This document shows positions 25,304 to 28,343 of a stretch of 32,000 nt of DNA, piece after piece. Location of the stretch: the NCBI RefSeq assembly GCF_008189405.1, contig NZ_CP043316.1, positions 450,001 through 482,000 on the forward strand, read 5' to 3'. A model generated the notes under the pieces. It saw only the letters and a program-made list of their open reading frames with translations, searched no databases and was not told where the DNA came from. The stretch is from Candidatus Saccharimonadota bacterium (GTDB taxonomy: Bacteria > Pseudomonadota > Alphaproteobacteria > CAJXXZ01 > 1604HC). Within the stretch, counting starts at the first letter, position 1; each line of letters begins with the position of its first letter. A program made the translations under genes and the position numbers.

Positions 25304-26653
25304 ATGCACGAACGAAGAATTAATTCCTTAAAAAATGCTAAGGTATTGTCTACAACCCAAAATACGCAAGCTTTTGCTGAGTTTATAACACCAAGAATAT
25401 TCATGAAGATGCTGCCTTATGTGAATTTGGATACAGGTATATTTAGAATCAATAGAATTAATAAACACAAAAACAATGCGAATCTAAGCTTGGATGAAAG
25501 TTCTGTACGCAATATAGAGCTGATGAGCCATTTGAATGATAATGAAATTTCAAAACTATTAAATACTTCTGTAAAGAAAACATTCGCACTTGGTGAAACA
25601 ATTGAATCTGAGCAATCAGAAAATAAATTCTATATTGTTTTAAGTGGAGAATATGAACTTATTCTACTAAACCATAATGATAAGCCTGTTGTAATTTCTA
25701 CATTACATTCTGGTAAATTCTTCGGTGGATTCAAAGCATTAAACTATGATAATCATGCAAAAATCAAAGTCAGAACATCTATTCAAGGATCTATGCTTGT
25801 TATTGATCATGACACTTTAAAAATTATATTGGAAAATGACAAACTAAGATATTACATAAAATCTACAATCATGGATTATGAAAATGAATATAATACTGGT
25901 GAGCATAAAGCAAAGCTAATTTCTTCATATACAGATGAGCCTCCAATGCCAAAAAGCTATATTAAATATGATGAAGCTCCTGAAGAAGTTGAGTTGGATG
26001 TTATTCAATCTGTACTGGGAATTCATAGTAGAATACATGAATTATATAACAATCCACACCCACAACTTGAATCACAATTGAAAATTTTAATACAGAATAT
26101 TCTTGAAAGAGAAGAATGGGAAATTTTTAACAATGCAAATCACGGCCTATTAAATCAAGTTGCATGTGATAGAAAAATCACTACAAGAACAGGACCTCCT
26201 ACCCCAGATGACATGGATGAATTATTATCCGTTTTATGGAAAGATCCATCAGTTATTGTAGCTCACCCTAAAGCTATAGCTGCATTTGCAAGAGAATGTA
26301 CAAAGCGTGGTGTTCCACCTGTAATAATCAGAATGTTTGGTAGCAATCTCATTACATGGAGAGGCGTTCCATTAGTGCCATGTGATAAGATCGGCATTAT
26401 GAAACGTCCTGATGGATTAGCTTTTACAAACATGATTGCAATGCGTTTAGGGATGGAAAAACAGGGAGTAATTGGCCTAAATAAAGCAGATATTTCATAT
26501 GGAGGTATTCCAAGCTTAAGTGTTAGACCTATGAATACTGACGATATGTCTGTAATCAACTATTTAATTACAAAATATTATAATGTTGCAGTACTAGTTC
26601 CTGATGCACTTGCTATGTTATGCAATATTGAAATTGGACATTATAACGATTAG
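25304..26653 (+). CDS. Family 2 encapsulin nanocompartment shell protein with an inserted cNMP-binding-like domain (2B-type)
   Basis: 449 aa, with SD AAGAGGAG 5 nt upstream. N-terminal ITPRIFMKMLPYVNLDTGIFRINR and C-terminal PTPDDMDELLSVLWKDPSVIVAHPKAIAAFARECTKRGVPP...LITWRGVPLVPCDK match my recollection of Family 2 (SrpI-like) shells. Residues ~75-185 look like a CAP-type effector domain (FALGETIE...FYIVLSGEYEL...LHSGKFFGG). Followed directly by a cysteine desulfurase with an N-terminal extension. Confidence 0.8.
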   Translation: MHERRINSLKNAKVLSTTQNTQAFAEFITPRIFMKMLPYVNLDTGIFRINRINKHKNNANLSLDESSVRNIELMSHLNDNEISKLLNTSVKKTFALGETIESEQSENKFYIVLSGEYELILLNHNDKPVVISTLHSGKFFGGFKALNYDNHAKIKVRTSIQGSMLVIDHDTLKIILENDKLRYYIKSTIMDYENEYNTGEHKAKLISSYTDEPPMPKSYIKYDEAPEEVELDVIQSVLGIHSRIHELYNNPHPQLESQLKILIQNILEREEWEIFNNANHGLLNQVACDRKITTRTGPPTPDDMDELLSVLWKDPSVIVAHPKAIAAFARECTKRGVPPVIIRMFGSNLITWRGVPLVPCDKIGIMKRPDGLAFTNMIAMRLGMEKQGVIGLNKADISYGGIPSLSVRPMNTDDMSVINYLITKYYNVAVLVPDALAMLCNIEIGHYND

Positions 26654-26699
26654 GTTAAAAAATTATAATAATTATGGTGAATATACAATTGAGGGAATT

Positions 26700-28343
26700 A
26701 TGATTGATAATGATATAAAAAAAATAAATCAAATGATTGAAAAGTTTGATTTTAGTGATTTAATAAATCAGTGTAATAGCACATCAAATTTAGTAAATCA
26801 TGGTAACAATAAGAATGATGGCACAATATATGATACGCAATATGATAATCAAAAACATTCGCATAATAAAATTGAAATCAATAAGCAAGATTATCTTGAT
26901 AAATCAAATCAAAATGAGACAAACCACTATAACGAAATTAGTGATGCATATAATCAAATCGAAAGTCTAGAAAACATTCCAGAATATAATGATTTCCAAA
27001 GCTTTGAAGCATCAAATATATATAATGCACACAATAAAGCAACCAACCATTCAAATGATATGCATCATACTAATACACCTTATATGCATAATGTAAATCC
27101 TAATAAGTTTAATAGCTTTAATTCAAATGTAAGCGCATCATTAGATGTATATCAAATACGTGAAGATTTTCCAATTTTACATAAAAAAGTACATGGTAAA
27201 CCTTTAATATGGCTTGATAATGGAGCAACATCTCAAAAACCCAAGCATGTAATTGATGCAATTTCCACCTATTATTCTCAATATAATTCAAATGTCCACC
27301 GAGGAGTTCATACTCTATCACAAGAAGCATCAGATTTATTTGACCAAGCTAGGGAAACAGTAGCAAGCTTTATTAATGCATCTTCTGCAACTGAAATCAT
27401 CTTTACAAAAGGGGCAACTGAAGGGTTAAATCTAATATCTAATACTATTGGCAAGCAGAAAATTCAAGCAGGAGACGAGATTCTTATTACACAATTGGAA
27501 CACCACTCAAATATTTTACCATGGCGTAAATTAGCACAAGAACACAATGCACATCTTAAGATAGTTCCAATTAATGCAAATGGGGATATTATGCTCGATG
27601 CATATTCAAACTTATTAAACTCTCGCACGAAAATTGTTGCATTATCTCACGTTGCAAACTCAATTGGGGCATTAGTACCAATAGAAAATATGATTCAACA
27701 AGCAAAAGCATTTGGCGCTATAACTGTTATCGATGGAGCACAATCAATACCACACATGAAGATTGATGTACAAAAGTTAGATTGTGATTTCTTTATATTT
27801 TCAGGGCACAAAATGTTTGCACCTACTGGTACTGGAGTTGTATATGGGAAAGAATACCTATTAAAAAACAATATTCCATATCAAGTTGGTGGCGGAATGA
27901 TACAAAATGTCACATATGAAGATGTACAATATGCTGATTCTCCGTATATATACGAAGCTGGAACTGCAAATTTAGCTGATATAGAAGGATTACGCGCTGC
28001 GATCAATTATTTAGATCAATTGGATATGAATAAGATTGAGCAATATGAGCATCAATTAGTTGAATATGCATATGAACAAATGTCTATGCTTAATCATGTG
28101 AATATTATTGGAAATCCTAGCACTCGCGTGGGTGTGATTTCATTTATTGTGCATAATATGGATAATAATGAGATTGGTAGAATATTAGATAAGGAAGGCA
28201 TTGCTGTTAGGACTGGCCACCATTGCGCGCAACCAGCGATACGCCACTTCGGGGTAGAAGGAACAGTACGCGCATCATTCGCCTTTTACAATACATATGA
28301 AGAAGTAGATAAGCTGATTGAAATATTACGAAATATTTGCTAG
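26700..28343 (+). CDS. group II (SufS/CsdA-type) cysteine desulfurase with a 147-aa low-complexity N-terminal extension (putative encapsulin cargo)
   Basis: Start chosen at ATG 26700, preceded by GAGGGA; the ORF-track start 26604 overlaps the shell gene and has no SD. The core runs from LDVYQIREDFPIL. WLDNGATSQKP, HHSNILPW, the SGHK PLP-lysine motif and the RTGHHCAQP catalytic-Cys loop are present. Residues 1-147 are N/H/Q-rich. Confidence 0.9.
   Translation: MIDNDIKKINQMIEKFDFSDLINQCNSTSNLVNHGNNKNDGTIYDTQYDNQKHSHNKIEINKQDYLDKSNQNETNHYNEISDAYNQIESLENIPEYNDFQSFEASNIYNAHNKATNHSNDMHHTNTPYMHNVNPNKFNSFNSNVSASLDVYQIREDFPILHKKVHGKPLIWLDNGATSQKPKHVIDAISTYYSQYNSNVHRGVHTLSQEASDLFDQARETVASFINASSATEIIFTKGATEGLNLISNTIGKQKIQAGDEILITQLEHHSNILPWRKLAQEHNAHLKIVPINANGDIMLDAYSNLLNSRTKIVALSHVANSIGALVPIENMIQQAKAFGAITVIDGAQSIPHMKIDVQKLDCDFFIFSGHKMFAPTGTGVVYGKEYLLKNNIPYQVGGGMIQNVTYEDVQYADSPYIYEAGTANLADIEGLRAAINYLDQLDMNKIEQYEHQLVEYAYEQMSMLNHVNIIGNPSTRVGVISFIVHNMDNNEIGRILDKEGIAVRTGHHCAQPAIRHFGVEGTVRASFAFYNTYEEVDKLIEILRNIC

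Follow-up and report, generated by a model that had tools for sequence, protein, structure and literature searches.

Two adjacent genes of Candidatus Cytomitobacter primus very probably make up a functional two-gene Family 2B desulfurase encapsulin system, in which the first gene encodes a shell and the adjoining gene a cysteine desulfurase that is most likely the cargo inside that shell. The genes (Table 1) lie in a stretch of 32,000 nucleotides, here called the window, from this member of the Holosporaceae, an endosymbiont of the diplonemid Diplonema japonicum; its genome of 622 kb agrees with the host-associated, reduced and AT-rich genome that an earlier note on this DNA, made from the letters alone, had surmised. 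Profile HMMs, sequence matches to solved structures and an AF2 model searched with Foldseek all identify the 449-aa product as a Family 2B encapsulin shell, a virus-capsid-like protein, and NCBI already names it 'family 2B encapsulin nanocompartment shell protein'. The pairing of a 2B shell with a desulfurase, which the earlier note had thought atypical, is not so: Andreas and Giessen (2021) described 199 such operons from nine phyla as a bioinformatic class (PMC8346489). None of the experimentally characterised encapsulins that we found in the literature is a 2B desulfurase system. The organelle type is thus an already known one, and it is noteworthy here only for its strong conservation in protist-endosymbiont genomes of about 0.62 Mb. 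The suggestion that a protein organelle has been kept in a streamlined genome was right, and is strengthened by the conservation of the pair in five symbiont genomes.

Table 1. Features of the shell and cargo genes; positions are those of the window, and residue numbers those of the respective protein.
Feature	Position	Strand	Basis and remarks
Shine-Dalgarno AGGAG of shell gene	25294..25298	+	Read from sequence; 5 nt before ATG
Family 2B shell gene, 449 aa + stop	25304..26653	+	NCBIfam encap_f2b, residues 10-446; ATG 25304, stop TAG 26651-26653
N-extension and N-arm, aa 1-55, with ITPR...LP.V...G.FRINR	25304..25468	+	Alignments, pLDDT
Segment from N-arm to CBD, aa 51-70, shortened counterpart of the S. 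griseus Enc Ca-binding subdomain (MBD)	25454..25513	+	Alignment
CBD-fold insertion, aa 63-195, degenerate phosphate-binding cassette (G142, A152)	25490..25888	+	Pfam, Foldseek
Linker and HK97-fold shell-forming domain, aa 195-445, Pfam SrpI-like	25886..26638	+	PF19307, pLDDT ~90
Intergenic spacer, 46 nt	26654..26699	+	Read from sequence; GAGGG at 26691-26695, 4 nt before cargo ATG
Cysteine desulfurase cargo gene, 547 aa + stop	26700..28343	+	NF041166, TIGR01979; identical to NCBI protein P0121
N-terminal helical element of cargo, aa 1-27, MIDNDIKKINQMIEKFDFSDLINQCNS, candidate shell-binding anchor	26700..26780	+	AF2, conservation
Disordered N/S/H/Q-rich linker of cargo, aa 28-147	26781..27140	+	AF2 pLDDT <50 for aa 28-145
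SufS-type (class II) PLP desulfurase domain, aa 148-547	27141..28340	+	PDB SufS matches down to 1.6e-129
PLP Lys371	27810-27812	+	Invariant
Catalytic Cys509	28224-28226	+	Invariant
Weak terminator-like hairpin and T-run	28439..28464	+	96 nt after cargo stop, between convergent genes

The shell gene lies where the earlier note had placed it, and the profile-HMM search proposed there assigns its product to Family 2B. The NCBIfam model NF041163 (encap_f2b) matches the protein with 406.2 bits (E 2e-121), marginally above its cutoff of 400, and the Pfam SrpI-like family PF19307 covers residues 195-445 at E 4.2e-91. Orthologues of the shell score 401.1, 396.7, 378.5 and 363.6 bits against NF041163, and because several of them fall below the cutoff their public names are inconsistent. 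The sequence blocks first taken as signs of a Family 2 shell are present (FITPRIFMKMLPYVNLDTGIFRINR; PPTPDDMDELLSVLWKDPSVIVAHPKAIAAFARECTKRGVPP...ITWRGVPLVPCDK), and P30, G45 and N50 of the N-arm are invariant in alignments of 23 and of 120 sequences. The CAP-like domain said to be inserted between these blocks, the cNMP-binding-like domain (CBD), was recovered both by Pfam cNMP_binding (PF00027, residues 92-178, 32.4 bits against a gathering score of 27.5) and by Foldseek matches to CNB domains. Sequence matches to 2A and 2B shells in the PDB span 1e-65 to 5e-79, including the 2B shells 9bje (4.8e-79) and 9bhu (5.3e-67) and the 2A shells 8t6r (1.2e-70) and 6x8m (5e-68). The AF2 model of the shell monomer (pLDDT 79.4 overall, 88-93 over residues 31-50) has the HK97 fold and separate cNMP-binding-like lobe that had been anticipated. 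Foldseek ranks 9bhu first for this model (E 2e-37), followed by 8t6r, 8wol, 6x8m, 9bix and 9bje, and then by HK97 phage capsids and CNB domains; E-values for the encapsulins 9bhu, 8t6r, 6x8m and 9bje lie between 2e-37 and 3e-28, against approximately 1e-9 for viral capsids and 1e-8 for CNB domains. The HK97 part of the model superposes on 9bje, 9bix and 6x8m with an rmsd of 2.0-2.8 Å over 221-230 alignment columns (for 6x8m, 2.8 Å at 43% identity).

The CBD and the segment preceding it are eroded in the symbiont shells. In a sample of 120 2B shell sequences, six from symbionts and 114 others, the symbiont shells are the shortest, at 444-450 aa against a median of 479. The segment equivalent to the MBD, the Ca-binding subdomain of the S. 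griseus Enc shell (PMC11550324), has only 19-20 residues in these six, whereas the other 114 have at least 25, with a median of 30; relative to 9bje the window shell is without about 10 residues of it, and residues 55-62 have low pLDDT in the AF2 model. It is this subdomain that sets the orientation of the CBD in S. griseus Enc. Within the CBD, the position of the Glu that contacts cNMP is occupied by G142 (E in 107 of the 120 sequences), and that of the contacting Arg by A152 (S in 80 and R in 17). Foldseek finds PKG and PKA CNB domains for the window CBD; alignment with PKG concurs with G142 and A152, while alignment with PKA RII moves each position by one residue, to Lys, and no alignment that we tried placed Glu and Arg together at the contact positions. 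The loss of these canonical contacts and of part of the Ca-binding subdomain makes control of the window shell by cAMP or cGMP unlikely. As the CBD is still under constraint, this points to a structural role, or to the binding of some other ligand.

The adjoining gene has every feature by which it had been recognised as a SufS-type desulfurase gene 46 nt downstream, including the GAGGG motif, SGHK and RTGHHCAQP. An alignment of 37 sequences shows no variation at K371, H507, H508 or C509, the desulfurase domain has pLDDT above 90 in the AF2 model, and judging from these residues the window enzyme is catalytically intact. The TIGR01979 sufS model matches with 537.6 bits (cutoff 475.1) from residue 152 onwards, which gives the N-terminal extension a length of approximately 147-150 aa. 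NF041166 (f2_encap_cargo1) is the best-scoring family for the cargo, at 638.2 bits, yet stays below its cutoff of 800; it aligns only at profile positions 127-622, and the orthologues score 621-628. This model was built for, and named after, 2A cargo with loading domains of approximately 225 aa, and the shortfall reflects a long loading domain that is missing or diverged. Plain SufS proteins of 405-420 aa and encapsulin-linked ones are equally similar to the catalytic domain (50-53% identity). A longer cargo reading frame from 26604 was rejected as unsupported, since the NCBI 547-aa protein and the N-termini of orthologues (MID.D..KIN...) fit the ATG at 26700.

The N/H/Q-rich extension of about 147 aa, described in the earlier note as something that housekeeping SufS lacks, is predicted to be disordered at residues 28-145 and to consist of a short helical element followed by an N-rich linker of approximately 118 aa. 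AF2 places helices at residues 3-15 and 19-30, with pLDDT by 10-residue block of 74 and 86 over residues 1-20 and 63 for residues 21-30. The extension as a whole is 21% Asn, 9.5% Ser, 6% His and 5% Gln; its length ranges from 66 to 159 aa across the orthologues, none of which is without one. The helical element is the best conserved part in three Cytomitobacter genomes, at 46-48% identity compared with 21-38% elsewhere in the extension, and falls at residues 44-58 in the C. indipagum cargo; the linker has a dN of 0.7-1.2. HMMs of cargo loading motifs (LARLANEFFS and AASPYYFLDG of 2A; ..IEKMSFxY.. of the nearest 2B-linked cargo) were trained on non-symbiont instances and scored on the symbiont extensions against shuffled controls in two tests. 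The symbiont extensions scored no better than shuffles, and the real score of the C. primus extension was reached by 33 of 200 and 162 of 500 shuffles. By eye only, KINQMIEKFDFSDL looks like both the 2A and the nearest-2B loading motifs.

Shell and desulfurase genes are adjacent, with all reading frames intact, in five symbiont genomes: C. primus, C. indipagum, two more Cytomitobacter-like genomes and Nesciobacter. Of the other four symbiont species, three have the two genes overlapping by 8 nt (ATGAYTGA), where the window has its 46-nt spacer instead, and the same overlap (ATGAYTRA) occurs in the non-symbiont relatives L007, L014 and L015. The gene pair evolves more slowly than murB, under stronger purifying selection: among the Cytomitobacter genomes the HK97 part of the shell is 87-90% identical with a dN of 0.06-0.08, and dN is 0.15-0.18 for the SufS domain and 0.28-0.33 for MurB, with the shell CBD (0.25-0.32) evolving no faster than MurB. 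The closest non-symbiont relatives (L014 and the metagenomic contigs L007, L009 and L015) are likewise pairs of a 2B shell and a desulfurase. A single shell gene and the lack of rhodanese and cysE had been counted as unusual; the observation stands, with neither gene found within the window, but such a locus is not peculiar to it, as L014, from a Candidatus Berkiella MAG, and contig L015 also have one shell gene and no sulfur accessory genes. L007 carries divergent genes for rhodanese, TusA and DsrE in addition, and a second shell gene is present in L009. No SufBCD, SufE or SufU genes were found near the pair in the window or at the symbiont loci. The flanks are as described in the earlier note, with two LRR proteins identified by Pfam and one orphan reading frame without a Pfam match. 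The 82-nt spacer upstream of the shell gene has no promoter-like site above chance, and a terminator consensus scan gave 2 sites where 1.4 are expected by chance, which is not significant.

It could be argued that the shell is real but that the desulfurase is an unencapsulated housekeeping SufS, with the extension being low-complexity sequence of an AT-rich genome and the linkage a historical leftover. This would fit the mostly unconserved, Asn-rich and length-variable extension with its non-significant loading-motif matches, a catalytic domain that plain SufS proteins match as well as encapsulin-linked ones do, and scores that pass the generic sufS model and remain below the NF041166 cutoff; furthermore, Fe-S cluster synthesis is among the most complete pathways according to the genome paper, and the window gene may be the SufS that was counted. 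However, strong genome reduction has left every orthologue with an extension of 66 aa or more, and the first 25 or so residues are conserved and confidently predicted to be helical. The translation-coupling overlap has been kept in most of the other symbiont species as well as in distant 2B desulfurase systems, the SufBCD, SufE and SufU partners were not found nearby, and there would be no reason for a shell without cargo to be one of the best conserved proteins encoded there. We consider an unencapsulated housekeeping role improbable. Decay of the whole pair to a functionless remnant, or descent of the shell gene from a prophage or GTA capsid in a gene-losing genome, is more improbable still. 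Reduced GTA capsid and portal clusters do occur in Cytomitobacter genomes (PMC9254644), the CBD and its Ca-binding subdomain show erosion when compared with other 2B shells, and several orthologues score below the NCBIfam cutoff (363.6-396.7 bits); but the reading frames are intact in five of five genomes, dN lies well under that of murB with even the CBD no faster than MurB, Foldseek matches to encapsulins are better than those to phage capsids by approximately 20 or more orders of magnitude, and neither the window nor L001 contains a portal, terminase or maturation protease gene.

There is next to no chance that the 449-aa protein is instead a Crp/Fnr-type cNMP-responsive transcription regulator beside a sulfur gene, a reading that its domains and fold refute. 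Its Pfam cNMP_binding domain is present, and public annotation calls the C. indipagum orthologue a 'cyclic nucleotide-binding domain-containing protein' and many JGI homologues a 'CRP-like cAMP-binding protein'. However, searches of Pfam and NCBIfam gave no HTH family, the CRP and FtrB models match only the nucleotide-binding part (residues 76-187), and PRK11753 aligns only over positions 10-123 of its 214. The 250 C-terminal residues match the encapsulin shell family (E 4e-91), solved encapsulin shells can be superposed on the AF2 model, neither the canonical Glu nor the canonical Arg contact is present, and the homologue EshA of S. griseus has itself been re-assigned from regulator to shell (PMC11550324). 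The window protein shares the CNB-fold beta-barrel with Crp/Fnr regulators, but has neither their HTH nor their dimerisation helix, and its CNB domain, without the canonical contact residues, sits inside a capsid-fold protein.

As a Family 2B desulfurase encapsulin, the window system is closest to the 2B desulfurase operons of L014, L015, L009 and L007, in which the gene of a CBD-bearing SrpI-like shell likewise directly precedes that of an N-terminally extended SufS-type desulfurase, although identity to the window shell is only 38-43%. The symbiont shells differ from other 2B desulfurase systems in being shorter, with a shortened MBD segment and the Glu of the phosphate-binding cassette lost, and in the Asn-rich linker of their cargo. 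The S. griseus 2B encapsulin (EshA or Sg Enc, 9bhu) has the same shell architecture, and in both shells the CBD is without the canonical Arg. Sg Enc has Trp at that position and an intact Ca-binding MBD, whereas the window shell has Ala (Lys if shifted by one residue) and its segment is shorter by about 10 residues. The S. griseus cargo is a terpene cyclase, 2-methylisoborneol synthase, with a disordered N-terminal loading domain rich in Pro, Gly and Ala (PMC11550324), in contrast to a desulfurase with an Asn-rich extension. The 2A systems of Synechococcus elongatus (SrpI, 6x8m) and Acinetobacter baumannii (the sulfur-storage compartment, 8t6r) have a homologous HK97 shell domain and also carry a SufS-type desulfurase with a disordered N-terminal domain; it is in these 2A systems that loading through this domain, higher activity on encapsulation and S0 storage have been shown by experiment. 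Unlike the window shell, 2A shells have no CBD insertion; their loading domains are approximately 225 aa long and P/G/S-rich, with LARLANEFFS and AASPYYFLDG motifs that are not significantly detectable in the window cargo, and the window has neither the rhodanese nor the serine O-acetyltransferase gene that are frequent in 2A operons.

We infer assembly, loading and sulfur storage in Candidatus Cytomitobacter primus by analogy with the characterised S. elongatus SrpI, A. baumannii 2A and S. griseus 2B systems. The S. griseus 2B shell has external CBDs that do not bind cAMP (PMC11550324) and, like other solved Family 2 shells, is a 60-mer; in the 2A systems, loading of the desulfurase depends on its N-terminal domain and encapsulation raises activity 7-fold (PMC8049743), and a desulfurase encapsulin stores S0 (PMC10836720). 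By the same scheme, 60 shell protomers would form a T=1 icosahedral shell of approximately 25 nm with the CBDs outside, and a desulfurase dimer would be held inside via its N-terminal extension. L-cysteine, which the symbionts, as they synthesise no amino acids, presumably import from their host, would enter through pores of the shell and be converted to L-alanine and persulfide or S0 sulfur; this sulfur might stay in the lumen as a protected store, or be passed to acceptors that serve the synthesis of Fe-S clusters and thio-cofactors. In published TEM, the symbionts are described as having a 'homogeneous granular interior' with 'no visible inclusions', and capsid-like particles were seen in none of more than 850 cells; such preparations would hardly reveal shells of approximately 25 nm. 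A more far-reaching idea, which we regard as unlikely, is that the encapsulated enzyme is the main or only cysteine desulfurase of these diplonemid endosymbionts of approximately 0.62 Mb and the stripped-down shell a minimal functional Family 2B compartment. If so, all sulfur mobilised from host cysteine for Fe-S clusters and thio-cofactors would pass through a minimal protein organelle, and such a role would explain why the pair is conserved above an essential cell-wall gene. The minimal 2B compartment would then consist of the shortest shell in the sample, without a complete Ca-binding subdomain or cNMP site, and of a cargo with a short helical anchor and a linker.

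Both genes of the operon were confirmed in the sequence at the positions where the earlier note had placed them, and the sequence blocks that it quoted, together with SGHK and RTGHHCAQP, were all found in the two proteins. A longer desulfurase reading frame opening at 26604 was considered and rejected, as the NCBI protein (P0121) starts at 26700, a start that also fits the N-termini of the orthologues (MID.D..KIN..). A protein of Candidatus Cytomitobacter primus, encoded on a 622,378-bp chromosome (OX638200.1), matches the shell with 100% identity. This bacterium belongs to the Holosporaceae, has a GC content of 30% and lives as an endosymbiont in the diplonemid Diplonema japonicum (PMC11909080). 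GC content lies between 0.23 and 0.35 throughout the window, and the encapsulin operon is not distinct in this respect. Promoter and terminator scans around the operon gave nothing exceeding chance, and an Rfam search found no riboswitch or other Rfam family near it.

Features of the window (window positions)
Feature	Position	Strand	Remarks
RNase P RNA class A	4018-4350	+	273 bits (Rfam)
Paralogous array	6024-19395	-	at least 7 proteins
Array protein	6024-7064	-	trypsin-like by eye; without Pfam match
Array short ORF	7164-7481		N-terminal module only
Array protein	7769-8992	-	trypsin-like by eye
Array ORFs	9597-10109, 10185-10796		resemble a single copy broken in two
Array protein	10966-12327	-	trypsin-like by eye
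Array protein	12648-14333	-	Pfam Trypsin/Trypsin_2 confirmed
Array short ORF	14513-16221		N-terminal module only
ddl	16417-17412		interrupts array
Array short ORF	17485-18000		N-terminal module only
Array protein	18151-19395	-	Pfam Trypsin/Trypsin_2 confirmed
Tandem LRR protein	20796-23042	-	748 aa; Pfam LRR_8, LRR_14, E ~1e-80
Tandem LRR protein	23050-25221	-	723 aa; Pfam LRR_8, LRR_14, E ~1e-80
Shell gene	25304-26653	+	449 aa; AGGAG 5 nt upstream
Desulfurase gene	26700-28343	+	547 aa; ATG 46 nt past shell stop, GAGGG before ATG
Orphan ORF	28456-29661
tRNA-Asn(GTT)	29915-29988	+	with RNase P RNA, sole Rfam/ARAGORN matches in the window
Polynucleotide phosphorylase, C-terminal part	30922-31992	-

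The proposal that the upstream protein is a Family 2 encapsulin shell rather than a Crp/Fnr-like protein agrees with both its profile HMM matches and its predicted fold. Pfam assigns residues 195-445 to the SrpI-like family PF19307 (E 4.2e-91) and residues 92-178 to cNMP_binding (32.4 bits), and the NCBIfam family 2B equivalog model matches residues 10-446 with 406.2 bits against a cutoff of 400. No HTH domain was found with Pfam or NCBIfam, and the CRP-type regulator models of NCBIfam align to the nucleotide-binding part only. The best sequence matches in the PDB are the 2B shells of Streptomyces lydicus and S. griseus (9bje, 4.8e-79; 9bix; 9bhu), followed by 2A shells from A. baumannii, S. 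elongatus and mycobacteria. An AF2 model built on the 120-sequence alignment had a pLDDT of 79.4 overall, of about 90 in the HK97 part and of 72-84 in the inserted cNMP-binding-like domain (CBD). Foldseek placed 9bhu first for this model (E 2e-37), then 8t6r, 8wol, 6x8m, 9bix and 9bje, with rmsd to encapsulin structures of 2.0-2.8 A over the HK97 part; further matches, at about 1e-8 to 1e-9, were HK97-type phage capsids and the CNB domains of PKG and PKA. Because of these HMM, PDB and AF2/Foldseek results, the protein is not a DNA-binding Crp/Fnr regulator lacking a capsid fold. The original finding is real and was correctly interpreted.

The C-terminal 400 residues of the cargo are a SufS-type desulfurase (TIGR01979, 537.6 bits, over cutoff; PDB SufS matches down to 1.6e-129), in which the PLP lysine K371 and the catalytic cysteine C509 are invariant. 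Of the NCBIfam models, NF041166 (desulfurase cargo of encapsulins) scores highest, at 638 bits under its 800-bit cutoff and with an alignment limited to profile positions 127-622. The N-terminal extension of about 147 aa described from the sequence is present; it is 21% Asn and scarce in Pro and Gly. AF2 predicts short helices at residues 3-15 and 19-30 (block pLDDT 74, 86 and 63 over residues 1-30), disorder over residues 28-145 (pLDDT <50) and, C-terminal to this, a SufS domain modelled with confidence. Whole extensions range from 66 to 159 aa across the orthologues, and within the symbiont clade an N-terminal element alone is conserved, reading KINQMIEKFDFSDL in C. primus, KINKILNEFNFKNL and KINKILDSFDFSDM in two further Cytomitobacter genomes and KINMNEFGNFDMHEL in C. 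indipagum (residues 44-58). By eye this element is like LARLANEFFS, a motif published for desulfurase cargo (PMC8049743), and like the ..IEKMSFxY.. of the closest non-symbiont cargo proteins. Two small HMMs were made from non-symbiont cargo extensions, one for the ..SLIEKMSFGYS.. motif and one from LARLANEFF-like instances. In comparisons with 200 and 500 shuffles, neither HMM gave a significant score to the extensions of the five symbionts; as such, the resemblance is only a lead.

C. indipagum, Nesciobacter abundans and two more complete genomes of Cytomitobacter type also carry the two genes side by side. These four make up the rest of the symbiont set, and no other genomes came back when species-representative genomes were scanned for close relatives of the shell. 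In every symbiont genome the pair lies near murB and ddl, and the other flanking genes differ. Next to the operons of the other symbionts there is no homologue of the downstream orphan ORF, which was thus rejected as a conserved third operon gene. The divergent hexapeptide-repeat gene upstream of the Nesciobacter operon was likewise rejected as cysE: its cysE match is weak and it is DapD-like, at 196 bits just under the 204-bit cutoff. The shell stop and the cargo ATG share an 8-nt overlap (ATGAYTGA) in three of the four other symbiont species, and the distant 2B desulfurase systems L007, L014 and L015 have this overlap too, an arrangement consistent with translational coupling. As dS was saturated (mostly >1), dN values rather than ratios were compared, using three pairwise comparisons within Cytomitobacter. 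The shell gave a dN of 0.12-0.16 as a whole, 0.06-0.08 in its HK97 part and 0.25-0.32 in its CBD, and the cargo 0.15-0.18 in its SufS domain and 0.7-1.2 in its linker; the neighbouring essential MurB gave 0.28-0.33. Judged from these substitution rates, the system is clearly maintained by selection, CBD included.

The pairing of a CBD-bearing shell with a desulfurase, thought atypical in the earlier note, is indeed a minority type, yet it is already documented: 199 desulfurase operons in 9 phyla are of type 2B and 1281 of type 2A (Andreas & Giessen 2021, PMC8346489), and a later survey gives desulfurase as one of the cargo types of 2B operons, both those with one shell gene and those with two. 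The nearest non-symbiont relatives, with shell identities of 38-43%, are all 2B shell and desulfurase systems. Among them, a Candidatus Berkiella MAG (L014) and a metagenomic contig (L015) have the same bare two-gene pair as the symbionts, so that a single shell gene without sulfur genes is not the peculiarity it had seemed. In contrast, locus L009 is arranged shell-desulfurase-shell beside an ankyrin-repeat gene, and in L007 the pair is joined by divergent genes for rhodanese, TusA and DsrE, which the symbiont loci lack. The single shell, the absence of accessory genes and the short loading domain are therefore features of the subgroup. In a neighbour-joining tree (200 bootstraps) the symbionts form a clade with 100% support and a long branch, and the tree did not resolve its sister. 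The added genes of L007 (3885-5869 of that locus, minus strand), divergent from the shell gene, encode TusA, a DsrE-like protein and a fusion of rhodanese and metallo-beta-lactamase, and might form the route by which a sulfur relay leads out of compartments of this kind.

Reductive features are apparent in the six symbiont shells of the 120-sequence alignment: they measure 444-450 aa, and the other shells have a median length of 479 aa and are never shorter than 453. Between N-arm and CBD the symbiont shells have 19-20 residues, where the others have a median of 30 and at least 25; in the S. griseus shell this segment forms a Ca-binding subdomain through which the CBD is docked (PMC11550324). 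The Glu of the phosphate-binding cassette, present in 107 of the 120 sequences, is Gly in the symbiont shells and Lys in Nesciobacter, and the canonical Arg position is Ala in C. primus and variable among orthologues. Alignment to PKG assigned the same Glu and Arg positions, alignment to PKA RII shifted by one residue, to Lys, and none of the alignments gave the C. primus CBD both canonical residues. S. griseus CBDs are located on the outer side of the shell and show no cAMP binding (PMC11550324). Because the canonical residues are missing and the S. griseus domains are external and do not bind, regulation of the C. primus shell by a cyclic nucleotide is unlikely. Across the mostly non-actinobacterial 2B shells of the alignment (P0007-P0120), the Arg position is Ser in 80 of 120 sequences and Arg in 17, as in P0021 (FGEIAL...PRTATV), and these shells do not have the Trp that Streptomyces-centred analyses describe as near-universal there. 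It may therefore be that cyclic-nucleotide binding survives in some 2B shells.

A mechanism can be proposed by homology with the S. elongatus SrpI, A. baumannii and S. griseus systems. The C. primus shells would assemble like the 60-subunit shells of S. griseus, with the CBDs outside (PMC11550324). The desulfurase would be loaded via its N-terminal domain, as is the cargo of S. elongatus SrpI, the activity of which rises about 7-fold on encapsulation (PMC8049743). Cysteine-derived sulfur would then be stored, as in the A. baumannii compartment, where crystalline elemental sulfur accumulates (PMC10836720). The symbionts have no amino-acid biosynthesis and import host metabolites, according to their genome paper, and the substrate would as such probably be host-derived cysteine. 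In published TEM of the symbionts neither inclusions nor capsid-like particles were reported, though shells of about 25 nm would probably not be visible at that resolution, and the ultrastructure papers speak neither for nor against particles of this size.

The C. primus pair is thus automatically annotated but undiscussed, with a few reductive features. NCBI names the shell 'family 2B encapsulin nanocompartment shell protein', and the orthologous shells carry four labels (family 2B encapsulin, cyclic nucleotide-binding domain-containing protein, hypothetical protein and none) because their NF041163 scores range from 363.6 to 406.2 bits and so fall on both sides of the 400-bit cutoff. The cargo is publicly labelled a plain cysteine desulfurase, and with such labelling metabolic reconstructions may count an encapsulated enzyme as the SufS of the Fe-S pathway. 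In our literature search no paper referred to an encapsulin gene from Cytomitobacter, Nesciobacter or any reduced endosymbiont genome, and none of the experimentally characterised encapsulins in the papers covered was a 2B desulfurase system. Encapsulin, desulfurase and Suf/Isc genes are unmentioned in the symbiont genome paper and one supplement, a Holosporales review and an EGT preprint. A 2022 study of GTA capsid genes in the same bacteria speculated that GTA capsids might function in the manner of encapsulins, as an analogy only and with no encapsulin gene of these genomes mentioned (PMC9254644). The compartment is under strong purifying selection though the symbiont genomes have lost energy metabolism and amino-acid synthesis, which suggests that handling of cysteine-derived sulfur matters in the host cytoplasm, near the host mitochondrion. 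This naturally minimised 2B system would offer a compact test case for the requirements of the CBD and the cargo-loading domain.

Several flanking gene families were also observed. The proteins of the paralogous array have signal-peptide-like N-termini and a common N-terminal module (YV.V..DG.V.I and EW[ED]GPF[LF]D), most also with a trypsin-like serine protease domain, and may represent an effector family that is both expanding and decaying. The two LRR proteins are near-identical over their first ~90 residues, followed by repeats of ~23 aa (L..L.L..NQLTELP.SIG.L); they lie between murB and the encapsulin operon in C. primus only, the other symbionts having different genes there. The polynucleotide phosphorylase has a K/N/E/Q-rich low-complexity insertion of ~130 aa between its RNase_PH_C and KH domains.
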